From a virus (taxonomy: Duplodnaviria; Heunggongvirae; Uroviricota; Caudoviricetes): DNA of 34,676 bases. Shown here in pieces: positions 1 through 10,157 of the stretch; the stretch's first letter is position 1, and each line of letters begins with the position of its first letter. The position numbers were made by a program, and so were the translations under genes. The notes beneath the pieces were generated by a model. The model was given only the letters and a program-made list of their open reading frames with translations. It searched no databases and was not told the DNA's origin. Location of the stretch: IMG/VR virus record IMGVR_UViG_2537561603_000002; one strand, given 5' to 3'.

Positions 1-1038
1 TTACGGGGTAATGCCAACCGCTGCCGCCACTTTGTCGCCACTTGGCAGCGTTGCCAGAGGATTGAAACGGAGCGCCGTTTCCAGATGTGCGTAACGCATA
101 GTCATTTTTATATCGTGGTGTCCGAGAATTTTTTGTAAGGCCAGAATGTTTCCACCCGACATCATGAAGTGCGCCGCAAACGTATGGCGCAGAACGTGTG
201 TGAGTTGACCGCGAGGGAGCACGATAGACGTTTTTTCCATCACGGATAAAAATTGAAAATAGCAGTCTGTGAAGAAATTGAACCCATCAAGCGCCATGAT
301 CTCTTCGTAAAGCTCTTTACTGATAGGGATGCTTCTGTTTTTCTTCCCCTTCGTTCTTACAAAGGTAATTCGGTATTTGGTCACCTGTGAGCGGGTAAGA
401 TTTACGGCTTCACGCCAGCGTGCGCCTGTGCTTAAGCATATCTTAACTACCAGTGCCAGTATTGGGTCCTGACGTTTGCAATCAGCCAGCAATTCAACAA
501 TCTGCTCATGGGTAAGCCATGCCATCTCTTTTTCTGCGATGGTGAATTTTCGCATGTTCTCCAGTGGGTTCGGATACGACCATTCGCCCAGGCGGGATAG
601 TTCGCTAAAAACACTACTTAGATAGCTTTGCTCCAGGTTAACGGTGACCGGGCTTGCTCCTTTTTTCCATTTCTCGCTGAAGTAGATCTCACCTGTCAGG
701 CGTTTATCTCGATAGTGGGCAAACATTTTAGAGGTGAGATCGGTTGCAAGGGGATTGCCCAGAGCGTCAACCATCAGCAGTAATTTGTCATAGACATGCT
801 GCCCAGCAGTCAGAGATTTACCATGTAGTTTGAACCATAGTTCAACCAAGTCTTTCAGTGTTCGACGATCCACTGATTCACCCAGCCAGGGCTTTGCTTC
901 GGTTTCTTCCATCGTGTGACGCTCAAAAGCCAGAGCTTCGCCTTTGGTGGCGAATTGTTTACGCACACGACGCCCACTACGTCCGGCGGGGTAACATTCG
1001 CAAAGCCATTTTCCTGTGGTGAGTTTTCGTACTGCCAT
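1..1038 (-). CDS. int: Tyrosine integrase (P2/186-like); start taken at internal Met (MAVRKLTTGKW...), the ORF is open to 1194
   Basis: Translation has the P2-Int-like N-terminus (GRSGRRVRKQFATKGEALAFE) and C-terminal catalytic region (HVLRHTFAAHFMMSGGNILALQKILGHHDIKMTMRYAHL) with the R..HxxR..Y signature. Stop codon lies at 1-3, so the 3' end abuts the window edge. Confidence 0.85.
   Translation of the reverse strand: MAVRKLTTGKWLCECYPAGRSGRRVRKQFATKGEALAFERHTMEETEAKPWLGESVDRRTLKDLVELWFKLHGKSLTAGQHVYDKLLLMVDALGNPLATDLTSKMFAHYRDKRLTGEIYFSEKWKKGASPVTVNLEQSYLSSVFSELSRLGEWSYPNPLENMRKFTIAEKEMAWLTHEQIVELLADCKRQDPILALVVKICLSTGARWREAVNLTRSQVTKYRITFVRTKGKKNRSIPISKELYEEIMALDGFNFFTDCYFQFLSVMEKTSIVLPRGQLTHVLRHTFAAHFMMSGGNILALQKILGHHDIKMTMRYAHLETALRFNPLATLPSGDKVAAAVGITP
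19..40. repeat. Candidate attL core; 22-bp direct repeat with 31822-31843 (21/22 identical)
   Basis: cgctgccgccactttgtcgcca here versus cgctgccgccattttgtcgcca at 31822-31843. The two copies bracket the prophage, int-proximal and ogr-proximal. Confidence 0.55.
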
Positions 1039-1226
1039 AAAAAATGCCCTCCAGTGGAGAGCATTTTTACTGTATGTATAACCAGTGTCAATGTATGAAA
1101 TCCTGTGACGATACATCTCACTGAAGCCATAATGAAGTTGGCTATTCTTTTTGCTATGTGAGTATGTAAATTTTGCGGCTAACCTGCGGCTCATTTTTAT
1201 TTTAGGCGCAGATATAAAAGCAAAAG

Positions 1227-1418
1227 TTATCGTGAGTTTTTAGTACAGATTTTTTTGGATTTACTAATAGTTCCATCATTGCAAACGAATTTGCCATCTG
1301 AGGTACAGTGAGAAACACCTCCCTTTTTCCCTGAGCAGGGATAATTTCTAGCATAGGTAGTTAGTGGGTTTAATAACAAAGAACATGACAAAACCACAAA
1401 AAATACCTTACCAAGCAT
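1227..1418 (-). CDS. Small secreted or lipoprotein-like Cys-rich hypothetical protein (63 aa), AT-rich cargo between int and repressor
   Basis: ORF with N-terminal hydrophobic signal-like segment ([23 protein letters not shown]) and 6 Cys in the mature part; local AT-richness differs from the phage backbone. Confidence 0.4.
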
Positions 1419-1433: not shown

Positions 1434-2090
1434 CTATTTAACATACTTGACTGTTAAACTTATAATTTTACCAATTATTTCAATGTCTTCTATCTTGCAT
1501 TCGAAGGCTCTGTTTCCACCCTCGACGAAGATTCTTCCACCGGGTAAACGAGTAATGTCACGGATCGTTATTTCGCCATCAATACTTATTATCCATTTAC
1601 CATCACGTATATCATCAAATTCTTTATCACAAATAAATTCAGAATTGTTATCTGTGATGACAAAAGGTTTTTTAAACGTAGAGGGTAGAAATCCCTTATC
1701 AAAAATATAAAAACCGTCTTTCTGCAATGCTCCATCAGACAATAAATATTTTTCTACTTCTATAGTATTTGTATTTGCTGATGCTTGCTTTGAACCATGC
1801 CCTGTTGTTAGCCAATTAAGCGAGGTGCCCGTTTCAAGGGCGCACTGGATTACCCAATCTGCTGGAAAAATATCACGCATATAGCGCGTTGCCATGGTGC
1901 TCTTAGAAACACCTAAATGATCACAGAGAGCCTGACGGGTACCGAACCCATATGCTTCAACTAAACGTTCTATGGCTTTCTTACCGCCGCTATTGAAATC
2001 CACAAGTCCTCCAAAGAAATCCAAAATTCGTTGACAGATTCCAAAAGCGATCTTAAGGTTGAACCAGAAGTGTTCTTTTGGAGCCTTCAC
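1434..2090 (-). CDS. Immunity repressor, phage 186 CI-like (HTH)
   Basis: 218-aa ORF divergent from the apl-like gene; helix-turn-helix-like segment (RQALCDHLGVSKSTMATRY) and 186 CI-like flanking motifs (VEAYGFG, CALETGTSLNWLTTGHG). Position between int and the early operon matches P2/186 architecture. Confidence 0.7.
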   Translation of the reverse strand: MKAPKEHFWFNLKIAFGICQRILDFFGGLVDFNSGGKKAIERLVEAYGFGTRQALCDHLGVSKSTMATRYMRDIFPADWVIQCALETGTSLNWLTTGHGSKQASANTNTIEVEKYLLSDGALQKDGFYIFDKGFLPSTFKKPFVITDNNSEFICDKEFDDIRDGKWIISIDGEITIRDITRLPGGRIFVEGGNRAFECKIEDIEIIGKIISLTVKYVK

Positions 2091-2148: not shown

Positions 2149-2352
2149 ATGACACCTAACATTTCAATTACTCTGAATACACCACATGTCACAATCGAAC
2201 GTTATAGCGAACTGACTGGCCTTTCTATTGATACGATTAACGACATGTTGGCTGATGGCCGACTACCTCGTCATCGTCTTCGTAAAGACAAAAAACGTGA
2301 AAAGGTAATGATTAACCTGGCTGCTCTGACTGTTGATGCTTTGTCTGCTTAA
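2149..2352 (+). CDS. apl: Apl/Cox-like excisionase and transcriptional regulator (67 aa)
   Basis: First gene of the rightward early operon; small basic HTH-like protein ([30 protein letters not shown]), as expected for 186 Apl / P2 Cox. Confidence 0.65.
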
Positions 2353-2416
2353 TAGATGTCTATTTTCGCAATAAGACGCTGAGTTCGATTTTGCGATAAG
2401 TTCGGAGTTGAAAACC

Positions 2417-2926
2417 ATGTTTGATTACCAAGTTTCCAAACATCCACATTTTGATGAAGCCTGTCGTGCATTCGCACTGCGCCACAATCTGGTGCAACTG
2501 GCAGAACGTGCTGGCATGAATGTGCAGATTCTGCGGAACAAGCTGAACCCATCTCAACCTCATTTATTAACCGCACCAGAAATCTGGCTGCTTACCGATC
2601 TGACAGAAGATTCAACGCTGGTAGATGGTTTTCTGGCACAGATTCACTGCCTGCCATGTGTACCGATTAATGAGGTTGCAAAAGAGAAACTGCCGCATTA
2701 CGTCATGAGCGCAACTGCAGAGATCGGACGTGTTGCAGCAGGTGCGGTATCTGGTGATGTAAAAACTAGTGCCGGTCGTCGTGATACTATCAGCAGCATT
2801 AACTCTGTAACACGACTGATGGCGCTGGCTGCTGTTTCATTGCAGGCCCGTTTACAGGCTAATCCTGCGATGGCGAGTGCAGTTGATACCGTGACTGGCC
2901 TCGGTGCTTCATTCGGTTTGCTGTGA
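2417..2926 (+). CDS. cII: CII-like lysogeny establishment regulator (169 aa from ATG 2417)
   Basis: Position directly after apl; the 169-aa product from the ATG at 2417 (SD-like ggag upstream) fits the 186 CII size and resembles it by recall. Confidence 0.6.
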
Positions 2927-2933
2927 GGTGCTT

Positions 2934-3134
2934 ATGCTGACGAAAGAACCATCATTTGCATCGCTGCTGGTAAATCAAAGCCCGGCAATGCACTACGGTC
3001 ACGGCTGGATCATGGGTGAGGATGGTAAACGCTGGCATCCGTGCCGTTCACAAGATGAATTGCTGGCAGAACTATCTACGAAAAAACGGGGGAACAAATG
3101 GCTATTGAAGGCGCTGCGGCTACTGTTCCATTAA
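2934..3134 (+). CDS. Early-operon hypothetical protein (66 aa)
   Basis: ORF with SD-like gaggtg 4 nt before ATG 2934; tightly packed in the early operon. Confidence 0.45.
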   Translation: MLTKEPSFASLLVNQSPAMHYGHGWIMGEDGKRWHPCRSQDELLAELSTKKRGNKWLLKALRLLFH

Positions 3135-3439
3135 GCCCCGGTGAACGCCTGAATGGACTTAATCACATTGCGGAGTTAAGGGCGAAAGTTTTTGGCCTGA
3201 ATATTGAGTCAGAGCTTGAGCGGTTTATTAAAGATATGCGTGATCCACGGGATATCAATAGCGAACAAAATAAACGGGCACTGGCTGCCATATTCTTTAT
3301 GGCAAAAATTCCAGCTGAACGTCATAGCATCAGCATTAATGAGCTGACCACTGACGAAAAGCGGGAGTTGATTAAAGCAATGAATCATTTTCGTGCAGTG
3401 GTGAGCTTATTTCCCAGACGGCTAACCATGCCGAATTAA
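3098..3439 (+). CDS. Early-operon hypothetical protein (113 aa)
   Basis: ORF overlapping the end of the preceding gene, same strand, in the early operon. Confidence 0.45.
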   Translation: MAIEGAAATVPLSPGERLNGLNHIAELRAKVFGLNIESELERFIKDMRDPRDINSEQNKRALAAIFFMAKIPAERHSISINELTTDEKRELIKAMNHFRAVVSLFPRRLTMPN

Positions 3440-3506
3440 CCAGCTAATGAAATTAATGGCGTAAACCCGCCGGGCATCCCTTTATCTAAATTCAGGAGAA
3501 TTGATT

Positions 3507-3740
3507 ATGCGTAATATTGAAACCCTCACGACTAAAACCGGACCGGATGACGCAGGGCTTAATATTTTACTGACAGAGGCTCGTCTGGAAGAACGCCGGG
3601 CAAGGGCTGAAGCAATGGCTGCCCGCCTTGATAGTCTTGCGTGTCATATCACATCCCGCCAGCTAAACCACGTCGAAGCGGCAGAACTGCTGCGTGTGAC
3701 CGCTGAAGCAATCCAGAACGAAGCGCAGGAGATCCACTAA
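3507..3740 (+). CDS. Early-operon hypothetical protein (77 aa)
   Basis: ATG at 3507 preceded by SD aggaga; coiled-coil-like sequence. Confidence 0.45.
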   Translation: MRNIETLTTKTGPDDAGLNILLTEARLEERRARAEAMAARLDSLACHITSRQLNHVEAAELLRVTAEAIQNEAQEIH

Positions 3741-3967
3741 TGGCTGATGCAATGGATCTCGTACAGCAGCGCGTTGAAGAAGAACGCCAGCGCCATATCC
3801 GTGCTGCCCGTGCCAAAACACCGGGCGTGTCTCGCGTGCTTTGCATTGAATGTGAAGCGCCAATTCCGCCAGCACGCCGCCGCGCCATTCCAGGAGTGCA
3901 GCTTTGCATTACCTGTCAGGAAATCGCAGAGCTGAAAGGCAAACATTACAACGGAGGTGCTGTATGA
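3740..3967 (+). CDS. TraR/DksA-family C4 zinc-finger protein (75 aa)
   Basis: CxxC...CxxC arrangement ([26 protein letters not shown]) typical of phage TraR/DksA-like zinc fingers; start overlaps the previous stop (TAATG). Confidence 0.6.
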
Positions 3968-4266
3968 CAGGGGCTGTGCGTATCCATCAATTAAAAATTG
4001 CACCTAAGTATTTCAACGCTGTGGTTGCAGGTCAAAAGACGGCTGAACTTCGTAAAGACGATCGTGGCTATAAAGTTGGTGATGTTCTTTCTCTTTGCGA
4101 ATGGAAGCATGGCGTATTTACGGGTAGGGAATGGGCCGCGGTTATCTCTCATGTGCTTCCGGTTAATGACGTCATGGCAGTTACAGAACAATGGGTGATG
4201 CTATCAATTCGCTCATTAACCCCATTAGAAGCTTTAGGATATGTTATTGCAGGAGGTGCTGTATGA
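3964..4266 (+). CDS. ASCH/DUF3850-like (PUA-fold) small protein (100 aa)
   Basis: ORF from ATG 3964, translationally coupled to neighbours; family assignment is by recalled similarity and is tentative. Confidence 0.4.
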
Positions 4267-5120
4267 GCACCATCCTGAAATGGGCGGGTAATAAAACCAC
4301 CATTATGTCCGAACTGAAAAAATACCTTCCTGCTGGCACGCGACTGGTTGAACCTTTCGCGGGTTCTTGTGCTGTGATGATGGAGACGGATTACCCCAGC
4401 TATCTGGTTGCGGATATTAATCCTGATTTAATCAACCTCTATAAAAAGGTTGCTGCTGATTGTGAGGCGTTTATATCTCGTGCCAGAGCTTTATTTGAGG
4501 AAGCAAACAGAGAGGTGGCTTATTACAACATAAGGCAGGAGTTTAATTACTCCACTGAAATTACTGATTTCATGAAAGCGGTATATTTTCTGTATCTCAA
4601 TCGTCATGGTTACCGTGGGCTATGTCGCTATAACAAGAGCGGGTATTTCAACATTCCCTACGGTAATTATAAAAATCCGTATTTCCCTGAAAAAGAAATT
4701 CGCGCATTTGCAGAGAAAGCCCAGCGGGCAACGTTTATCTGCGCCAGCTTTGATGAAACGCTGGCGATGTTGAAGGCGGGGGATGTGGTGTATTGCGATC
4801 CGCTTTATGACGGTACGTTTTCCGGCTATCACACTGATGGCTTCACTGAAGATGACCAGTATCACCTGGCATCCGTTCTTGAACATCGATCATCTGAAGG
4901 TCATCCGGTCATTGTTTCTAACAGTGACACATCCCTGATCCGTTCGCTGTATCGCAATTTTACTCACCACTACATCAAGGCAAAACGCAGCATCGGCGTG
5001 GCAGCTGGTGAGAGTAAATCTGCAACAGAAATCATCGCTGTTTCCGGGCCGCGCTGCTGGGTAGGATTTGATCCTTCGCGTGGCGTGGATTGTTCCGTCG
5101 TGTACGGAGTGCGTGCATGA
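4263..5120 (+). CDS. dam: DNA adenine N6-methyltransferase (Dam-like, orphan)
   Basis: N-terminal SAM-binding motif (ILKWAGNK...VEPFAGS) and catalytic DPLY motif ([11 protein letters not shown]), as in Dam/T4-Dam class MTases. No adjacent restriction enzyme. Confidence 0.8.
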
Positions 5121-7531
5121 GCCATGCTGATATGAACAACTGCAGCGGCTTTAACGAGGTCGCCGCAGCATTCTCATGGAACAGCCCGAAAAAGGCCATT
5201 AACCCTTATCTGGACCCGGCGGAAGTTGCGCCGGTTTCTGCGCTTTCAAACCTGATCACTCTGTACGCTGCCGATAACGAGCAGGAACAACTGCGCCGCG
5301 AGGCACTGAGTGATCAGGTCTGGGAGCGTTATTTCTTTAATGAATCCCGTGATCCTGTCCAACGCGAAATGGAGCAGGATAAGCTAATTAGCCGGGCAAA
5401 GCTGGCGCATGAGCAGCAGCGTTTTAATCCAGACATGGCCATTCTGGCGGACGTCAACGCCCAGCCTTCCCATATCAGCAAGCCGCTGATGCAACGTATT
5501 AAATACTTCAGCAGCCTGGGCAGGCCAAAGGCTTATTCCCGCTATTTGCGTGAGACGATTAAGCCATGCTTGGAACGACTGGAGCATGTACGCGACAGTC
5601 AGCTATCCACTTCTTTTCGCTTTATGGCAAGCCATGAAGGGCTGGACGGCCTGCTGATCCTGCCTGAAATGAGTCAGGATCAGGTGAAACGCCTGTCCAC
5701 CTTGGTAGCTGCGCATATGAGCATGTGCCTTGATACAGCTTGTGGCGATTTGTATGCCACCGATGATGTTACGCCAGAAGAAATCCGCAAGACATGGGAA
5801 AAGGTGGCAGCGGAAACCCTGCGTCTGGATGTTATCCCGCCTGCGTTTGAGCAACTTTGTCGGAAAAGAAACCGCCGTAAACCCGTGCCTTATGAACTCA
5901 TTCCGGGTTCGCTGGCGCGTATGTTATGCGCCGACTGGTGGTATCGGAAATTATGGAAGATGCGTTGCGAATGGAGGGAAGAGCAGTTGCGTGCTGTTTG
6001 CCTGGTCAGCAAAAAAGCATCTCCCTATGTCAGCTATGAAGCCGTGATGCATAAACGTGAGCAGCGCCGTAAGTCGCTGGAGTTTTTCCGTTCTCATGAA
6101 CTGGTGAACGAAGACGGCGACACGCTGGATATGGAAGACGTGGTAAACGCCAGCAGCAGCAACCCTGCGCATCGCCGCAATGAGATGATGGCCTGTGTTA
6201 AAGGTCTGGAGCTTATCGCGGAAATGCGTGGTGACTGCGCCGTTTTCTACACCATCACCTGTCCGTCACGTTTCCATTCCACGCTAAATAACGGCAGGCC
6301 CAACCCGACCTGGACAAATGCGACGGTAAGACAAAGCAGTGATTATCTGGTCGGTATGTTTGCTGCATTTCGTAAGGCGATGCACAAAGCCGGATTACGC
6401 TGGTATGGCGTGCGGGTGGCTGAGCCGCATCATGACGGTACAGTTCACTGGCACCTGTTGTGTTTTATGCGCAAAAAAGATCGCCGCGCCATTACTGCTT
6501 TGTTGCGTAAGTTTGCCATTCGTGAAGACCGCGAGGAGCTGGGTAATAACACGGAACCACGCTTTAAGTCTGAGCTGATAAACCCGCGCAAAGGTACGCC
6601 AACAAGCTACATCGCGAAATACATCAGTAAGAACATTGACGGGCGTGGTCTGGCTGGCGAGATCAGCAAGGAAACGGGTAAATCCCTGCGTGATAACGCC
6701 GAATACGTTAATGCCTGGGCGTCTTTGCATCGTGTTCAGCAATTCCGCTTCTTTGGCATTCCGGGGCGTCAGGCTTACCGTGAACTGCGATTGCTGGCTG
6801 GTCAGGCGGCAAGGCAACAGGGGGACAAAAAAGCAGGTGCGCCGGTACTGGATAACCCGCGCCTTGATGCCATCCTGGCTGCCGCTGATGCTGGCTGTTT
6901 TGCCACCTACATCATGAAGCAGGGCGGCGTACTGGTTCCCCGCAAATATCACCTCATCAGAACCGCTTATGAAATCAACGAAGAGCCGACCGCCTATGGC
7001 GATCACGGTATTCGTATTTATGGCATCTGGTCACCCATTGCAGAGGGCAAGATCTGCACTCATGCGGTGAAGTGGAAAATGGTTCGTAAGGCCGTTGACA
7101 TTCAGGAGGCGGCAGCCGACCAGGGCGCTTGCGCCCCTTGGACTCGTGGCAATAACTGTCCCCTTGCTGAAAATTTGAACCAGCAGGAGAAAGATAAATC
7201 AGCTGATGGGGACACCAGAACGGACATTACCTGCATGGATGACAAGGAGTTGCACGATTATCTGCACAGTATGAGCAAAAAAGATCGCCGGGAACTGGCA
7301 GCAAGGTTACGCCTGGTGAAACCGAAACGGCGTAAAGACTACAAACAGCGAATTACAGACCATCAGCGACAGCAGCTTGTCTATGAACTGAAGTCCAGAG
7401 GATTTGATGGCAGCGAGAAAGAGGTCGAGTTGCTCCTTCGCGGTGGCAGTATTCCGTCAGGAGCAGGCCTGCGTATCTTCTATCGGAACCAGCGTCTGCA
7501 GGAGGATGATAAATGGCGGAACATGTATTAA
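5117..7531 (+). CDS. A: Replication initiation protein A (rolling-circle HUH endonuclease)
   Basis: About 804 aa from ATG 5117 (ATGA overlap with dam stop); HUH motif ([13 protein letters not shown]) and downstream Tyr motif ([11 protein letters not shown]) typical of P2 gpA / 186 RepA. Confidence 0.85.
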
Positions 7532-7883: not shown

Positions 7884-8117
7884 ATGCGCATTGAAATAAT
7901 GATCGATAAAGAGCAGAAGATTAGCCAGTCTATCCTGGACGCCCTTGAATCCGAGCTTTACCGCAATCTGCGCCCCCTGTATCCAAAAACGGTAATTCGT
8001 ATCCGCAAAGGTAGCTCTAACGGTGTGGAACTGACCGGACTGCAACTGGACGAAGAAAGAAAACAAGTGATGAAAATTATGCAGAAGGTGTGGGAAGACG
8101 ACAGCTGGCTGCATTAG
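7884..8117 (+). CDS. DinI-family protein (77 aa)
   Basis: MRIEIMIDKEQKISQSILDALESELYRNLRPLYPKTVIRIRKGSSNGVELTGL...KIMQKVWEDDSWLH parallels DinI (MRIEV...; conserved C-terminal W-E-[SD]-x-D-x-W); own SD gaggtg. Confidence 0.7.
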   Translation: MRIEIMIDKEQKISQSILDALESELYRNLRPLYPKTVIRIRKGSSNGVELTGLQLDEERKQVMKIMQKVWEDDSWLH

Positions 8118-8245: not shown

Positions 8246-8986
8246 TCAGTTTTCTTTGAATTTTTCACTTAATCGTTTCGTCAATACTTCGACAGATTCT
8301 TTGCGACCGGAGAACAAGTCATTGACGACGTACTCCATAATCTCAAAAGCATCCTCAATGTCTTTGACTTTTACTTCATCGTAGGTATGGCTTCCGGCAT
8401 TTCCTAAAAATTTAATTGCCATAAGAGGTCTTGAAAACGATCCGTATAATTCAGGTAGCATCCCTAAACGGTGGTGTAGAGTTATGCGTTTGCCATTATC
8501 ATTACGTTCAGCTACATCCATAGCGGTTAGCATTCTTTCAACTGAAATTCGAATTAGGTTTGCTGCTGCGCCAGGCTGTATTAGGAAAATGGAAAATGAG
8601 GCTTCAAGCGGTTCGGTAATTTCTTCTGGGCATTTTTCAGGTATTTCGAAAGGATGCAGTGATGGGTAAAAGGTGAAAGGTCTGTGCCATTGATAGTACT
8701 CAATATCATTTCTTTCTTCATCCCAACCTTGTTCCCATCCACTCTTACCAGTACAGGCCACAACTTCACCACATTGCATTCTTGAACAGCGGGCCATGCA
8801 ACTGAAAATAGATGAATCCATTTCTAGTTCAAACCAATCTTCACTGCGGAATTTTCGGGTATCATGTGTGTCATACGAGACGAAACTTTCTTTAATGATC
8901 TGTAGGGTTTTCTGATTGCAGTTAGGGCAGGGCCACTCAACCTGCATATCGTGGAAAAACGCACCAGAGAGCTTGTGCACAGTCAT
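8246..8986 (-). CDS. Cargo hypothetical protein (246 aa): N-terminal Cys-rich (zinc-ribbon-like) region plus C-terminal alpha-helical domain; candidate defence protein
   Basis: Reverse-strand ORF with SD gagga upstream of ATG 8986; CPNC...CxxxCxxxxC...C cysteines; C-terminal region holds an R-x4-H motif (KRITLHH); lower GC than backbone; in the A-to-Q variable region. Confidence 0.55.
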   Translation of the reverse strand: MTVHKLSGAFFHDMQVEWPCPNCNQKTLQIIKESFVSYDTHDTRKFRSEDWFELEMDSSIFSCMARCSRMQCGEVVACTGKSGWEQGWDEERNDIEYYQWHRPFTFYPSLHPFEIPEKCPEEITEPLEASFSIFLIQPGAAANLIRISVERMLTAMDVAERNDNGKRITLHHRLGMLPELYGSFSRPLMAIKFLGNAGSHTYDEVKVKDIEDAFEIMEYVVNDLFSGRKESVEVLTKRLSEKFKEN

Positions 8987-9280: not shown

Positions 9281-9356
9281 GCAGAAGATTATTATTGGTA
9301 CACTGTCGGTGACTCTCTACGCAGATCTTACACATTAATTTCTAATGGGGCATGCT

Positions 9357-10157
9357 ATGATCTTTCTAAGTCATAATCACCGTGACAAAAGGTTTGTAAG
9401 TGTTATAGCGGAAAAACTAGCAGATGTTTATGGGCGTGATAACGTATTCTACGATTCTTGGTCTATCCAACCCGGAGAGGGTATTATTGACAAGATGAAT
9501 TTAGGAATGGAGAATGTATCGTTCTTTTTCTTTTTTGTCACAGAAAATAGCTTGGCAAGTAACATGGTAAAAATGGAATGGCAAAATGCTTTAATTAAGG
9601 CATCGTCCGGGAAGTGTAAATTTATACCAATACGTTGCCAGAATATATCCTTGCCTGCTCTGCTTACTCAAACGCTATATATTGATCTTTATTCGTATGG
9701 GATCGATGTGGCAATAAGACAAATTATAGATGTCATTAATCAACAAAATACGTATATTCCTAATCCTGAGAAGTATTCAAACCTCTCCTATGATATTAAG
9801 GATGATGATGGGGGTAAGATAGTGAAATTATCAGCAATGGATTTTTTAGAACCAATTGCTGATTTTATGATGATTATGGATAATACAATTAAGCATGATG
9901 ATGTTGTTGTTATGGTCAATGGAGAAAGCTCATTCACTCAGGGGTTTATTGAAAATGCATCTTTAGAAAATGGTATGAAAGTAAGTGGTGCCACTGTTGG
10001 CCTAAATCGGGGGTTAACACCAACGATGCCAATGTATGTTTCTCTTAGGTTAAAGGATGGTTCACCTTTGAATATATTTGCGGTGCTACATCGAGTAAGT
10101 ACCGAGCGTTATGCTCCTATACCACATAAAGCCGATGATGCCTTTAGAGTAAAATAA
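9357..10157 (+). CDS. TIR-domain protein (about 266 aa) with C-terminal domain of unknown function; candidate defence effector or sensor
   Basis: N-terminus MIFLSHNHRDKRFV...FYDSWSIQPGEGI...VTENSLASNMVKMEWQNAL follows the TIR pattern (FxSHxxxD, SW, conserved Glu in a W..E motif). AT-rich; alternative start at 9345; stem-loop terminator downstream. Confidence 0.6.
   Translation: MIFLSHNHRDKRFVSVIAEKLADVYGRDNVFYDSWSIQPGEGIIDKMNLGMENVSFFFFFVTENSLASNMVKMEWQNALIKASSGKCKFIPIRCQNISLPALLTQTLYIDLYSYGIDVAIRQIIDVINQQNTYIPNPEKYSNLSYDIKDDDGGKIVKLSAMDFLEPIADFMMIMDNTIKHDDVVVMVNGESSFTQGFIENASLENGMKVSGATVGLNRGLTPTMPMYVSLRLKDGSPLNIFAVLHRVSTERYAPIPHKADDAFRVK

Follow-up and report, generated by a model that had tools for sequence, protein, structure and literature searches.

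The two genes directly upstream of replication gene A in the window, the 34,676-nucleotide stretch of viral DNA analyzed here, are on balance best explained as part of an ordinary P2-family early operon, in which an orphan Dam methylase gene is accompanied by an optional DUF3850 gene that is allied to the replication module and is not an obligatory partner of Dam. The window is an E. coli prophage of the P2 family, resembling Fels-2 and RE2010, and the region lies distally in its early lytic operon, with the gene order cox, cII, fil, DUF5347, DUF2732, TraR-like, DUF3850, Dam, A. The early-operon placement given in the original prediction agrees with this order, and the span it singled out, 3964-5120, runs exactly from the ATG of the DUF3850 gene to the TGA of Dam. 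The TraR-like gene upstream is the positional homologue of P2 Orf82. The features of the locus are as follows.

3740..3967, plus strand: TraR/DksA-type C4 zinc-finger gene, 75 aa (Pfam zf-dskA_traR, E 3.1e-11; phrog_54, E 1.4e-30)
3953..3967, plus strand: left copy of the 15-nt direct repeat GGAGGTGCTGTATGA, holding a Shine-Dalgarno sequence and the ATGA stop/start overlap
3964..4266, plus strand: DUF3850/ASCH-superfamily gene, 100 aa, an optional cassette (Pfam PF12961)
4252..4266, plus strand: right copy of the 15-nt direct repeat, with the Shine-Dalgarno sequence and ATGA junction into Dam
4263..5120, plus strand: EcoDam-like D12 (alpha-class) N6-adenine DNA methyltransferase gene, 285 aa, orphan (Pfam PF02086; PDB EcoDam; PADLOC oMTase)
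4797..4808, plus strand: Dam catalytic motif IV, D179-P-L-Y, with the Leu181 codon CTT at 4803-4805 (read in the sequence)
5117..7531, plus strand: replication gene A, HUH-type rolling-circle initiator/nickase (Pfam Phage_GPA, E 2.2e-128)

Three ATGA overlaps can be read directly in this stretch, joining the TGA of the TraR-like gene (3965-3967) to the ATG of DUF3850 (3964-3966), the TGA of DUF3850 (4264-4266) to the ATG of Dam (4263-4265), and the TGA of Dam (5118-5120) to the ATG of gene A (5117-5119). The ATGA coupling of the small gene to Dam and of Dam to gene A had been described correctly. A scan for promoters and terminators within the operon gave no signal above shuffled expectation. 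Judged against the P2 and 186 reference annotations, the locus has the placement of a P2/186-type cargo zone, lying between B/dhr-level genes and A on the same strand, with no internal terminator and with a stop/start overlap into A. The stretch just 5' of the essential gene A would be a non-essential cargo zone in P2-family phages, where overlapping stop and start codons join each cargo gene to the next and would pass ribosomes on to gene A. Phage 186 carries such a cargo gene, the non-essential orf84, which directly precedes gene A and meets it at a TGAATGA-type junction; according to the phage record, gene A appears to be translated only when orf84 is translated right to its end. Unlike the window gene, orf84 encodes a PAPS-reductase-domain protein and not a Dam, and the region of 186 examined holds no DUF3850. 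ATGA coupling to gene A is a general trait of the operon that belongs to whichever gene precedes A, which argues against taking it as a sign that DUF3850 and Dam act jointly. Moreover, the slot between Dam and gene A is filled in relatives by PAPS-reductase (SspD/DndC-like), TGT-like or C5-MTase genes, and the surroundings of Dam behave as a swap-in slot for DNA-modification genes, among them Dam itself, C5 MTase, the SspD/DndC-like PAPS reductase and the TGT-like protein. The 273-aa cargo protein of locus L106 matched PHROG 887 alone, with no sequence match in the PDB and none in Pfam.

The DUF3850 gene is a presence/absence polymorphism. A repeat search recovered two copies of the 15-nt repeat at 100% identity and a spacing of 299 nt, and alignment to Salmonella phage RE2010 (Felsduovirus) resolves an exact 299-bp indel bounded by this repeat. 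RE2010 and ~45 Klebsiella peduoviruses match the window at ~96% DNA identity and have its early operon, including a TraR-like gene, Dam and gene A coupled via the same GGAGGTGCTGTATGA junction. They have Dam but lack DUF3850 and the 299-bp cassette, and carry a single copy of the 15-nt junction against two in the window. Gain or loss of the cassette would take place at this repeated junction. Among phage matches, 45 of 58 cover the query in two pieces, without the cassette, and among complete E. coli genomes 1245 have the TraR-Dam-A region and 76 the cassette; DUF3850 is missing from ~94% of the related prophages in this species. Since most Dam-bearing relatives lack the small gene, Dam does not need DUF3850.

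Its short length (100 aa) and its absence from most close relatives could raise the suspicion that the small ORF arose by chance or is a gene in decay, with coincidental overlaps. This has next to no probability and is refuted by profile match, selection, fold and family size. The ORF matches DUF3850 (PF12961, E 8.9e-24) over the entire Pfam profile, with ASCH (PF04266, E 1.4e-5) as a second Pfam match. It has a confidently predicted PUA-like beta-barrel fold that agrees with a crystal structure, and it carries the GxKxxExR motif (G23-R30, 4030-4053, plus strand). Profile, fold and motif together place the protein in the ASCH/PUA-like superfamily, as the original prediction had proposed; a profile search without PUA-fold signal would have spoken against that proposal, and both the ASCH and DUF3850 profiles match. 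A dN/dS of ~0.11 across clades, with synonymous sites near saturation, demonstrates purifying selection. The exact window protein is found on 233 contigs, and its homologues form 17,331 clusters at 50% identity. Of 50,697 phage records, 527 contain DUF3850, and its genomic contexts are many; for example, it adjoins a tail tubular gene in T7-like Kayfunavirus. A search with DUF3850 against PADLOC gave no matches, and the idea of a defence protein was dropped on that ground.

In structure, DUF3850 is an ASCH/PUA-like beta-barrel of minimal size, whose pocket is lined by an invariant Lys, Glu and Arg (GxKxxExR). The residues invariant across the family are polar or charged (K25, E28, R30, D33, R34, D40), and their resemblance to a catalytic or ligand pocket hints at a small ASCH-like enzyme, an N4-acylated cytidine amidohydrolase or a ribonuclease, acting on modified nucleosides or RNA without involvement of Dam or gene A, in the service of host takeover, nucleotide salvage or counter-defence. 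The great breadth of the family and its many contexts would suit such an enzyme. The ASCH superfamily also includes YqfB, Zymomonas ASCH and TRIP4. The essential or catalytic residues of YqfB are Lys21, Thr24 and Glu74 with Arg26 (PMC6972931). K25 and R30 of DUF3850 align with K21 and R26 in a weak match (E 0.01), but Thr24 is replaced by Glu28, and nothing in the 77-residue DUF3850 domain can be aligned with the C-terminal YqfB residues His70, Glu74 and Tyr89 (PMC6972931). Identity as a YqfB-type N4-acetylcytidine amidohydrolase was rejected, since DUF3850 retains neither the catalytic Thr nor the catalytic Glu. Furthermore, DUF3850 is fused elsewhere to ParB_N (loci L119, L180 and L185) and to a LexA-type winged helix, partners that suggest nucleic-acid binding over small-molecule metabolism, and we regard an enzyme of this kind as unlikely. 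Phage ParB-CTPase-DUF3850 fusions contain the same domain, are prophage-enriched and have no known function (PMC12704722), whereas the window protein consists of this domain alone and has neither ParB nor ParA next to it. The PDB also holds an Enterococcus faecalis DUF3850 protein (3iuw), deposited as an ‘activating signal cointegrator’ and with no assigned function. Most likely, DUF3850 would be a small nucleic-acid or nucleotide-binding factor.

The neighbouring methylase is an orphan Dam-type enzyme by family, as originally called. Its ORF matches MethyltransfD12 (PF02086, E 8.9e-74) over profile positions 1-253 of 253 in Pfam and the PDB structures of EcoDam (2g1p, 4gol; E 9e-72), members of the same D12 alpha-class family, with the match spanning residues 4-263. 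The best PADLOC model is the orphan MTase (oMTase, E 3.5e-109), and no restriction endonuclease is found among the 40-odd genes annotated in the matching E. coli SCU-115 prophage, whose annotations comprise P2-type structural and regulatory genes along with DUF4145 and TIR proteins. The window Dam differs from EcoDam in being phage-borne, in a 22-residue C-terminal extension, and in motif I (FAGSC versus FVGAG) and motif IV (DPLY versus DPPY). Motif I reads EPFAGSC (4350-4370, plus strand), with the last Gly of FxGxG replaced by Cys, and this FAGSC form is shared by every one of the 88 related Dams inspected, all of them from cassette-bearing loci, and is hence normal for the clade. Motif IV, in contrast, departs from the consensus (D/N/S)PP(Y/F/W): 86 of the 88 have DPPY, and DPLY occurs only in the window and in one identical locus (L010). 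The DPLY allele is real, the exact allele being found on 137 contigs, and with Leu in place of the second proline the activity of the window Dam is uncertain and the enzyme may be impaired. A literature search on the role of this proline found nothing. Degenerate MTase motifs had been named in advance as grounds for doubting the prediction; the DPLY of motif IV touches on these grounds.

As for specificity, K9, L122, R124 and P134 of EcoDam, which we take to be GATC-contact residues from the EcoDam-DNA structures, are all conserved in the window Dam in a phmmer alignment, and N120 and R137 differ, being R and N instead. From these residues, the phage Dam is probably GATC-specific. GATC is neither avoided nor enriched in the prophage (122 sites against 116 +/- 9 expected). 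Dam would be expressed only in lytic growth, where it could keep fast-replicating phage DNA methylated, either to shield that DNA from GATC-cutting restriction on entry into new hosts or to avoid a hemimethylated state.

Whether DUF3850 belongs with Dam, with gene A or with neither can be judged from its neighbours. In the clade of the window protein (clade I, defined at at least 64% identity), DUF3850 sits directly upstream of a D12 Dam in 89 of 90 loci, in the arrangement DUF-Dam-(C5)-A. This adjacency persists while Dam diverges to 48% and DUF3850 to 65% identity, and could reflect function rather than descent. One sister peduovirus clade has the arrangement DUF-A in 34 of 34 loci, and another, which includes P2 Orf91, has A-DUF in 63 of 63; across these clades II and III, none of 97 loci has a Dam within 4.5 kb of DUF3850, so that DUF3850 does not need Dam. 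P2 Orf91 (NP_046796.1), a DUF3850-family protein without an assigned function, is 47% identical to the window protein over ~75 residues and is ATGA-coupled to gene A in the same operon, but it lies downstream of gene A where the window gene lies upstream, and its C-terminal part differs. Unlike the window, P2 has no Dam in the corresponding region. Gene A, not Dam, is the conserved genomic partner of DUF3850 across Peduoviridae, although proximity to gene A may merely mark a permissive insertion zone.

Beyond the P2 family, a general association of DUF3850 with MTases had been suggested by the presence of Dam in all 91 close loci, and was dropped once distant homologues and the Dam-less peduovirus clades were taken into account. 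In 45 diverse non-P2 viral loci, MTases are not enriched beside DUF3850 (3 of 130 close neighbours versus 8 of 147 more distant genes). On the other side, an MTase lies within ~4 kb of DUF3850 in roughly a quarter of these loci (11 MTase matches in 45). The neighbours of DUF3850 there are mostly replication or partition genes, such as ResIII helicases, DnaG zinc ribbon and ParA. In 13 distant genomic loci, an MTase lies at most 2 genes from DUF3850 in 3, and Christensenella-type loci (L094, L096, L098) have HUH Rep genes 1-2 genes upstream of DUF3850. Among the loci sampled, adjacency of ASCH-type and adenine-MTase genes does not recur across unrelated genomes, being confined to one peduovirus clade.

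These patterns bear on a further explanation, namely that DUF3850 is an N6-methyladenine reader or regulator that cooperates with the neighbouring Dam, for example by sensing or shielding methylated GATC, by linking methylation to gene A nicking or packaging, or by modulating Dam. An association of ASCH with N6A MTases and an m6A-reader role had been predicted previously, with ASCH-MTase operons noted (Iyer, Zhang and Aravind 2016, PMC4738411), and DUF3850 and DNA MTases have ParB-domain fusion partners in common in phages (PMC12704722). The PUA-like fold is related to the YTH and EVE modified-base readers, and the strict, translationally coupled adjacency to Dam in clade I despite mosaic divergence would fit a shared function, as would the SspD/DndC-like PAPS reductase, TGT-like protein and C5 MTase of the flanking slot and, in Nitrospirillum, a winged-helix-DUF3850 fusion near C5-MTase-like genes. 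However, the m6A-reader role of ASCH was unconfirmed by experiment as of 2024 (PMC11037411). Y36 is the sole invariant aromatic residue of DUF3850, leaving no obvious conserved aromatic cage, and the window Dam itself has the DPLY motif. Moreover, a closer DUF3850 does not go with a closer Dam from one locus to the next (for example, 68% with 82%, 76% with 53%), giving no sign of co-adaptation between the two. Clades II and III, P2 included, have no nearby Dam, most Dam-bearing relatives have no DUF3850, and many phages, Kayfunavirus among them, carry DUF3850 well away from any annotated MTase. We therefore consider a reader partnered with Dam improbable. The joint action of the pair put forward by the original prediction keeps the clade I adjacency in its favor, and is left weakly supported by the 0 of 97 sister loci, the ~94% of E. 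coli relatives without DUF3850 and the lack of MTase enrichment.

In the preferred reading, that of an ordinary early operon, DUF3850 would be an optional accessory of the replication module. A narrower version makes it a dedicated accessory of the HUH initiator gpA, for example binding a flipped, single-stranded or modified origin nucleotide and, in Dam-bearing phages, reading GATC methylation to time gene A nicking; we hold this to be very doubtful.

Orphan Dam genes are familiar in Fels-2-like P2 phages, and the finding is an ordinary one, both genes being already annotated in identical public prophages. For example, the E. coli SCU-115 prophage (NZ_CP054368.1, integrated beside rcdA) is 100% identical over window positions 3500-5300, the only stretch compared, and its NCBI PGAP labels read TraR/DksA, DUF3850 domain-containing protein, DNA adenine methylase and replication endonuclease. 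Annotation pipelines would label the window Dam functional despite its DPLY catalytic motif. DUF3850, in turn, is a very large phage-enriched family without known function, P2 Orf91 included, and its position beside gene A in three arrangements offers a cheap hypothesis that is testable in the P2/186 genetic system. Should it indeed prove to be an accessory of gpA, this would be the first function for a family of ~17,000 clusters that includes P2 Orf91.

The window is a P2-family prophage (Peduoviridae, Fels-2/RE2010-like), whose genes from the integrase to replication gene A are listed below.

Prophage genes from the integrase to gene A (window coordinates, strand, product)
1-1194, minus strand, integrase
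1434-2090, minus strand, CI-type repressor
2149-2352, plus strand, cox-like, early operon
2408-2926, plus strand, cII, early operon
between cII and DUF5347, plus strand, fil, early operon
3098-3439, plus strand, DUF5347, early operon
3501-3740, plus strand, DUF2732, early operon
3740-3967, plus strand, TraR/DksA-type zinc finger, early operon
3964-4266, plus strand, DUF3850 ORF of 100 codons (Pfam PF12961, full profile, E 8.9e-24; ASCH, E 1.4e-5)
4263-5120, plus strand, Dam ORF of 285 codons (Pfam MethyltransfD12, full profile, E 8.9e-74)
5117-7531, plus strand, replication gene A (Pfam Phage_GPA, E 2.2e-128)

Direct reading of the sequence shows that the TraR-like gene, DUF3850, Dam and gene A are linked in series by stop/start overlaps of the form ATGA (3964-3967, 4263-4266 and 5117-5120); the coupling of Dam to DUF3850 and to gene A is exactly as the original prediction described, and together with Pfam the reading bears out the genes and their operon position. 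A promoter and terminator scan of the operon interior gave no signal above shuffled expectation. The element itself was annotated beforehand: positions 3500-5300 are 100% identical to the prophage adjoining rcdA in E. coli SCU-115, where the NCBI annotation has both a ‘DUF3850 domain-containing protein’ and a ‘DNA adenine methylase’. What is new is modest, comprising the bounds of an optional cassette and its 15-nt repeat, a DPLY allele of Dam, the three placements of DUF3850 relative to gene A, and the finding of no general association with methyltransferases. Between the integrase and repressor genes, a 63-codon ORF (1227-1418, minus strand; listed by the matching E. coli record as a ‘hypothetical protein’) has a hydrophobic N-terminus and several cysteines, and its product may be a small lysogenic-conversion protein that is secreted or sits in the membrane.

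The small ORF upstream of Dam is a real gene with a predicted PUA-like fold, as judged from conservation and modelling. Homologues of 42-96% identity share invariant K11, Y36, G39 and D40 and a G-x-K-x-x-E-L-R motif at residues 23-30, the median pairwise dN/dS among clade members is 0.11, and the AlphaFold model built from the alignment has a mean pLDDT of 92. The proposal of a PUA-fold protein thus agrees with the DUF3850 and ASCH profile matches and with the predicted fold; a chance ORF is ruled out. The family is large, with 17,331 cluster representatives (50% identity) matching DUF3850 at E <= 0.001, and occurs in 527 of 50,697 phage records, T7-like, T1-like, Enterococcus, Listeria and Clostridium phages among them. 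PHROGs classes it as phrog_986, ‘RNA-binding protein’; no PADLOC model matched it, and none of the papers found assigns it a function, its main literature setting being ParB-CTPase domain fusions in phages (PMC12704722). An enzymatic role would fit the charged invariant residues and the alignment of K25 and R30 with YqfB K21 and R26, both of them essential, but Glu occupies the position of YqfB Thr24, while His70, Glu74 and Tyr89 find no match (PMC6972931), and we consider such a role improbable. Two Nitrospirillum loci (L097:4010-4585 and L102:3995-4561, locus coordinates) encode a fusion of DUF3850 with a LexA-type winged-helix DNA-binding domain, a different architecture that points to DNA binding; an integrase adjoins, and two genes upstream lies a 700-aa protein that carries a C5-methylase domain.

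Not every member of this prophage group has the DUF3850 gene, which forms an optional cassette. Salmonella RE2010 and about 45 Klebsiella phages, the nearest relatives among isolated phages (~96% identity), match the query in two pieces with about 300 bp absent, and in the RE2010 alignment the gap is an exact 299-bp indel, the TraR-like gene running directly into Dam via one copy of GGAGGTGCTGTATGA. This 15-mer, which contains a Shine-Dalgarno sequence and the ATGA junction, forms an exact direct repeat in the window (3953-3967 and 4252-4266, one per cassette end), and is single in relatives lacking the DUF3850 gene. In other DUF3850 clades both junctions are alike (a GG-rich Shine-Dalgarno sequence plus ATGA), though not identical. 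The TraR-Dam-A region is present in 1,245 of 5,426 complete E. coli genomes, and the DUF3850 gene of the window in 76. Either recombinational loss between the repeats or exchange at the conserved junction would account for such a distribution.

Comparison across the family shows that the constant in Peduoviridae is the nearness of DUF3850 to gene A, not to Dam. In the window's own clade I (90 loci from IMG/VR contigs, genomes and isolated phages; DUF3850 at least 64% identical), a D12 Dam directly follows DUF3850 in 89 loci, and the remaining one reaches a contig edge. Gene A comes next, with a C5 methyltransferase intervening in two of the 89 and three stopping short of A. This adjacency is kept while Dam falls to 48% identity, and the two proteins' identities do not co-vary across the clade (DUF3850 68% with Dam 82%; DUF3850 76% with Dam 53%). 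In clade II (Eganvirus-like, 41% identical), gene A immediately follows DUF3850 and no Dam lies within 4.5 kb (34/34 loci for both); in clade III (Peduovirus, 45-47% identical), the order is reversed, with DUF3850 immediately after A, ATGA-coupled and without Dam (63/63). Phage P2 belongs to clade III, its Orf91 being a DUF3850 protein; over its first 75 residues Orf91 (L286:5317-5646, 109 aa) shares 97% identity with a DUF3850 protein of 151 aa from Yersinia phage vB_YpM_50 (L189:2283-2738) and then diverges completely, which suggests a frameshift or truncation in P2.

Farther afield, three of 13 distant genomic loci carry a methyltransferase within two genes of DUF3850 (two C5-type, in loci with a DUF3850-winged-helix fusion, and one D12), and another three carry an HUH Rep protein just upstream. 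Across 45 non-redundant, non-P2 viral loci, methyltransferases number 3 among the 130 ORFs at most two genes from DUF3850 and 8 among the 147 ORFs at a distance of at least four genes; adjacency to DUF3850 is therefore not enriched, and the near neighbours are for the most part replication or partition genes. The proposal that DUF3850 and Dam act as a pair thus keeps its clade I adjacency but loses generality, all 97 loci of clades II and III lacking Dam. Pairing of Dam with DUF3850 as an m6A reader would match what had been predicted for ASCH domains (PMC4738411), a prediction still without confirmation in 2024 (PMC11037411), and seems unlikely to us. Taken as a whole, the interpretation in the original prediction is partly supported. 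We lean instead towards Dam as an orphan methylase, probably GATC-specific, that would be co-expressed with the replication genes and may be impaired in this allele, and towards DUF3850 as an optional part of the replication module, a small protein that would bind nucleic acid or nucleotides and has no obligatory partner in Dam.

Coupling into gene A by stop/start overlap is itself an operon property. For phage 186, the reference record describes the genes from dhr to A as non-essential in the interval between the two, and adds that A appears to be translated only if translation runs to the end of orf84, the PAPS-reductase-domain gene that immediately precedes A. The slot between Dam and gene A is empty in the window and variously filled or empty in E. 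coli relatives (variable-slot loci L105:2810-3820, L106:2825-3646 and L004:5146-6156).

Occupants of the Dam-gene A slot
PAPS reductase, 81% identical to phage 186 orf84; SspD/DndC/BrxP-like in PADLOC
273-aa protein, PHROG 887 match, queuine tRNA-ribosyltransferase-like; possibly DpdA-type
C5 methyltransferase, in phage ESSI2_ev129

The region is thus a cargo zone slotted by overlapping stop/start codons. DNA modification is the theme of much of its content, the slot genes and Dam together resembling a small DNA-modification island, and this context is the best remaining argument tying DUF3850 to modified DNA. An RNase T/DnaQ-like exonuclease gene, upstream of DUF3850 in Quadragintavirus (L003:3386-3982, immediately) and Eganvirus (L190:2645-3229, one gene away), is a further nucleic-acid-processing neighbour within the same zone. 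Between a DinI-like gene (7884-8117) and the portal gene, the window also encodes a DUF4145 protein (8246-8986, minus strand; Pfam E 4.9e-13, weak PADLOC match to PD-T7-4 at E 1.6e-5) and a TIR-domain protein (9345-10157, plus strand; TIR_2 E 4.1e-23, weak matches to TIR-NLR and ThsB). PADLOC gave the pair no good match to a named system; P2 has tin and old at this site, and the pair is therefore probably anti-phage cargo.

Dam is EcoDam-like (E 9e-72 to 2g1p and 4gol, residues 4-263) and keeps K9, L122, R124 and P134, which we take to be GATC-contact positions of EcoDam, while N120 and R137 differ. That it lacks a cognate restriction gene holds up, its top PADLOC model being orphan-MTase (E 3.5e-109) and no restriction endonuclease being annotated along the whole SCU-115 prophage. 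The window contains 122 GATC sites vs 116 ± 9 expected, which shows neither avoidance nor enrichment. In Yersinia phage vB_YpM_MLG42 (PP599993.1), an intact Dam ORF of 285 codons (L002:4290-5147; 73% identity to the window Dam) is left unannotated by the GenBank record, which also draws a minus-strand ‘hypothetical protein’ at the expected TraR-like gene position.

Motif I is FAGSC throughout the Dam clade. One observation bears on whether the methylase motifs are degenerate: catalytic motif IV (4797-4808) reads DPLY, not DPPY. A single C-to-T change (CCT to CTT) separates the two; among 88 related phage Dams from fetched loci, 86 have DPPY, and DPLY occurs only in the window and the identical locus L010. 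To our knowledge, the third position of motif IV is proline in active amino-methyltransferases, and the activity of the DPLY allele is therefore uncertain; the literature searched contained no published test of substitution at this proline. Because the exact protein is present on 137 public contigs, the allele is not a sequencing error, and a possibly inactive methylase would thus be in circulation, labelled as normal by annotation.
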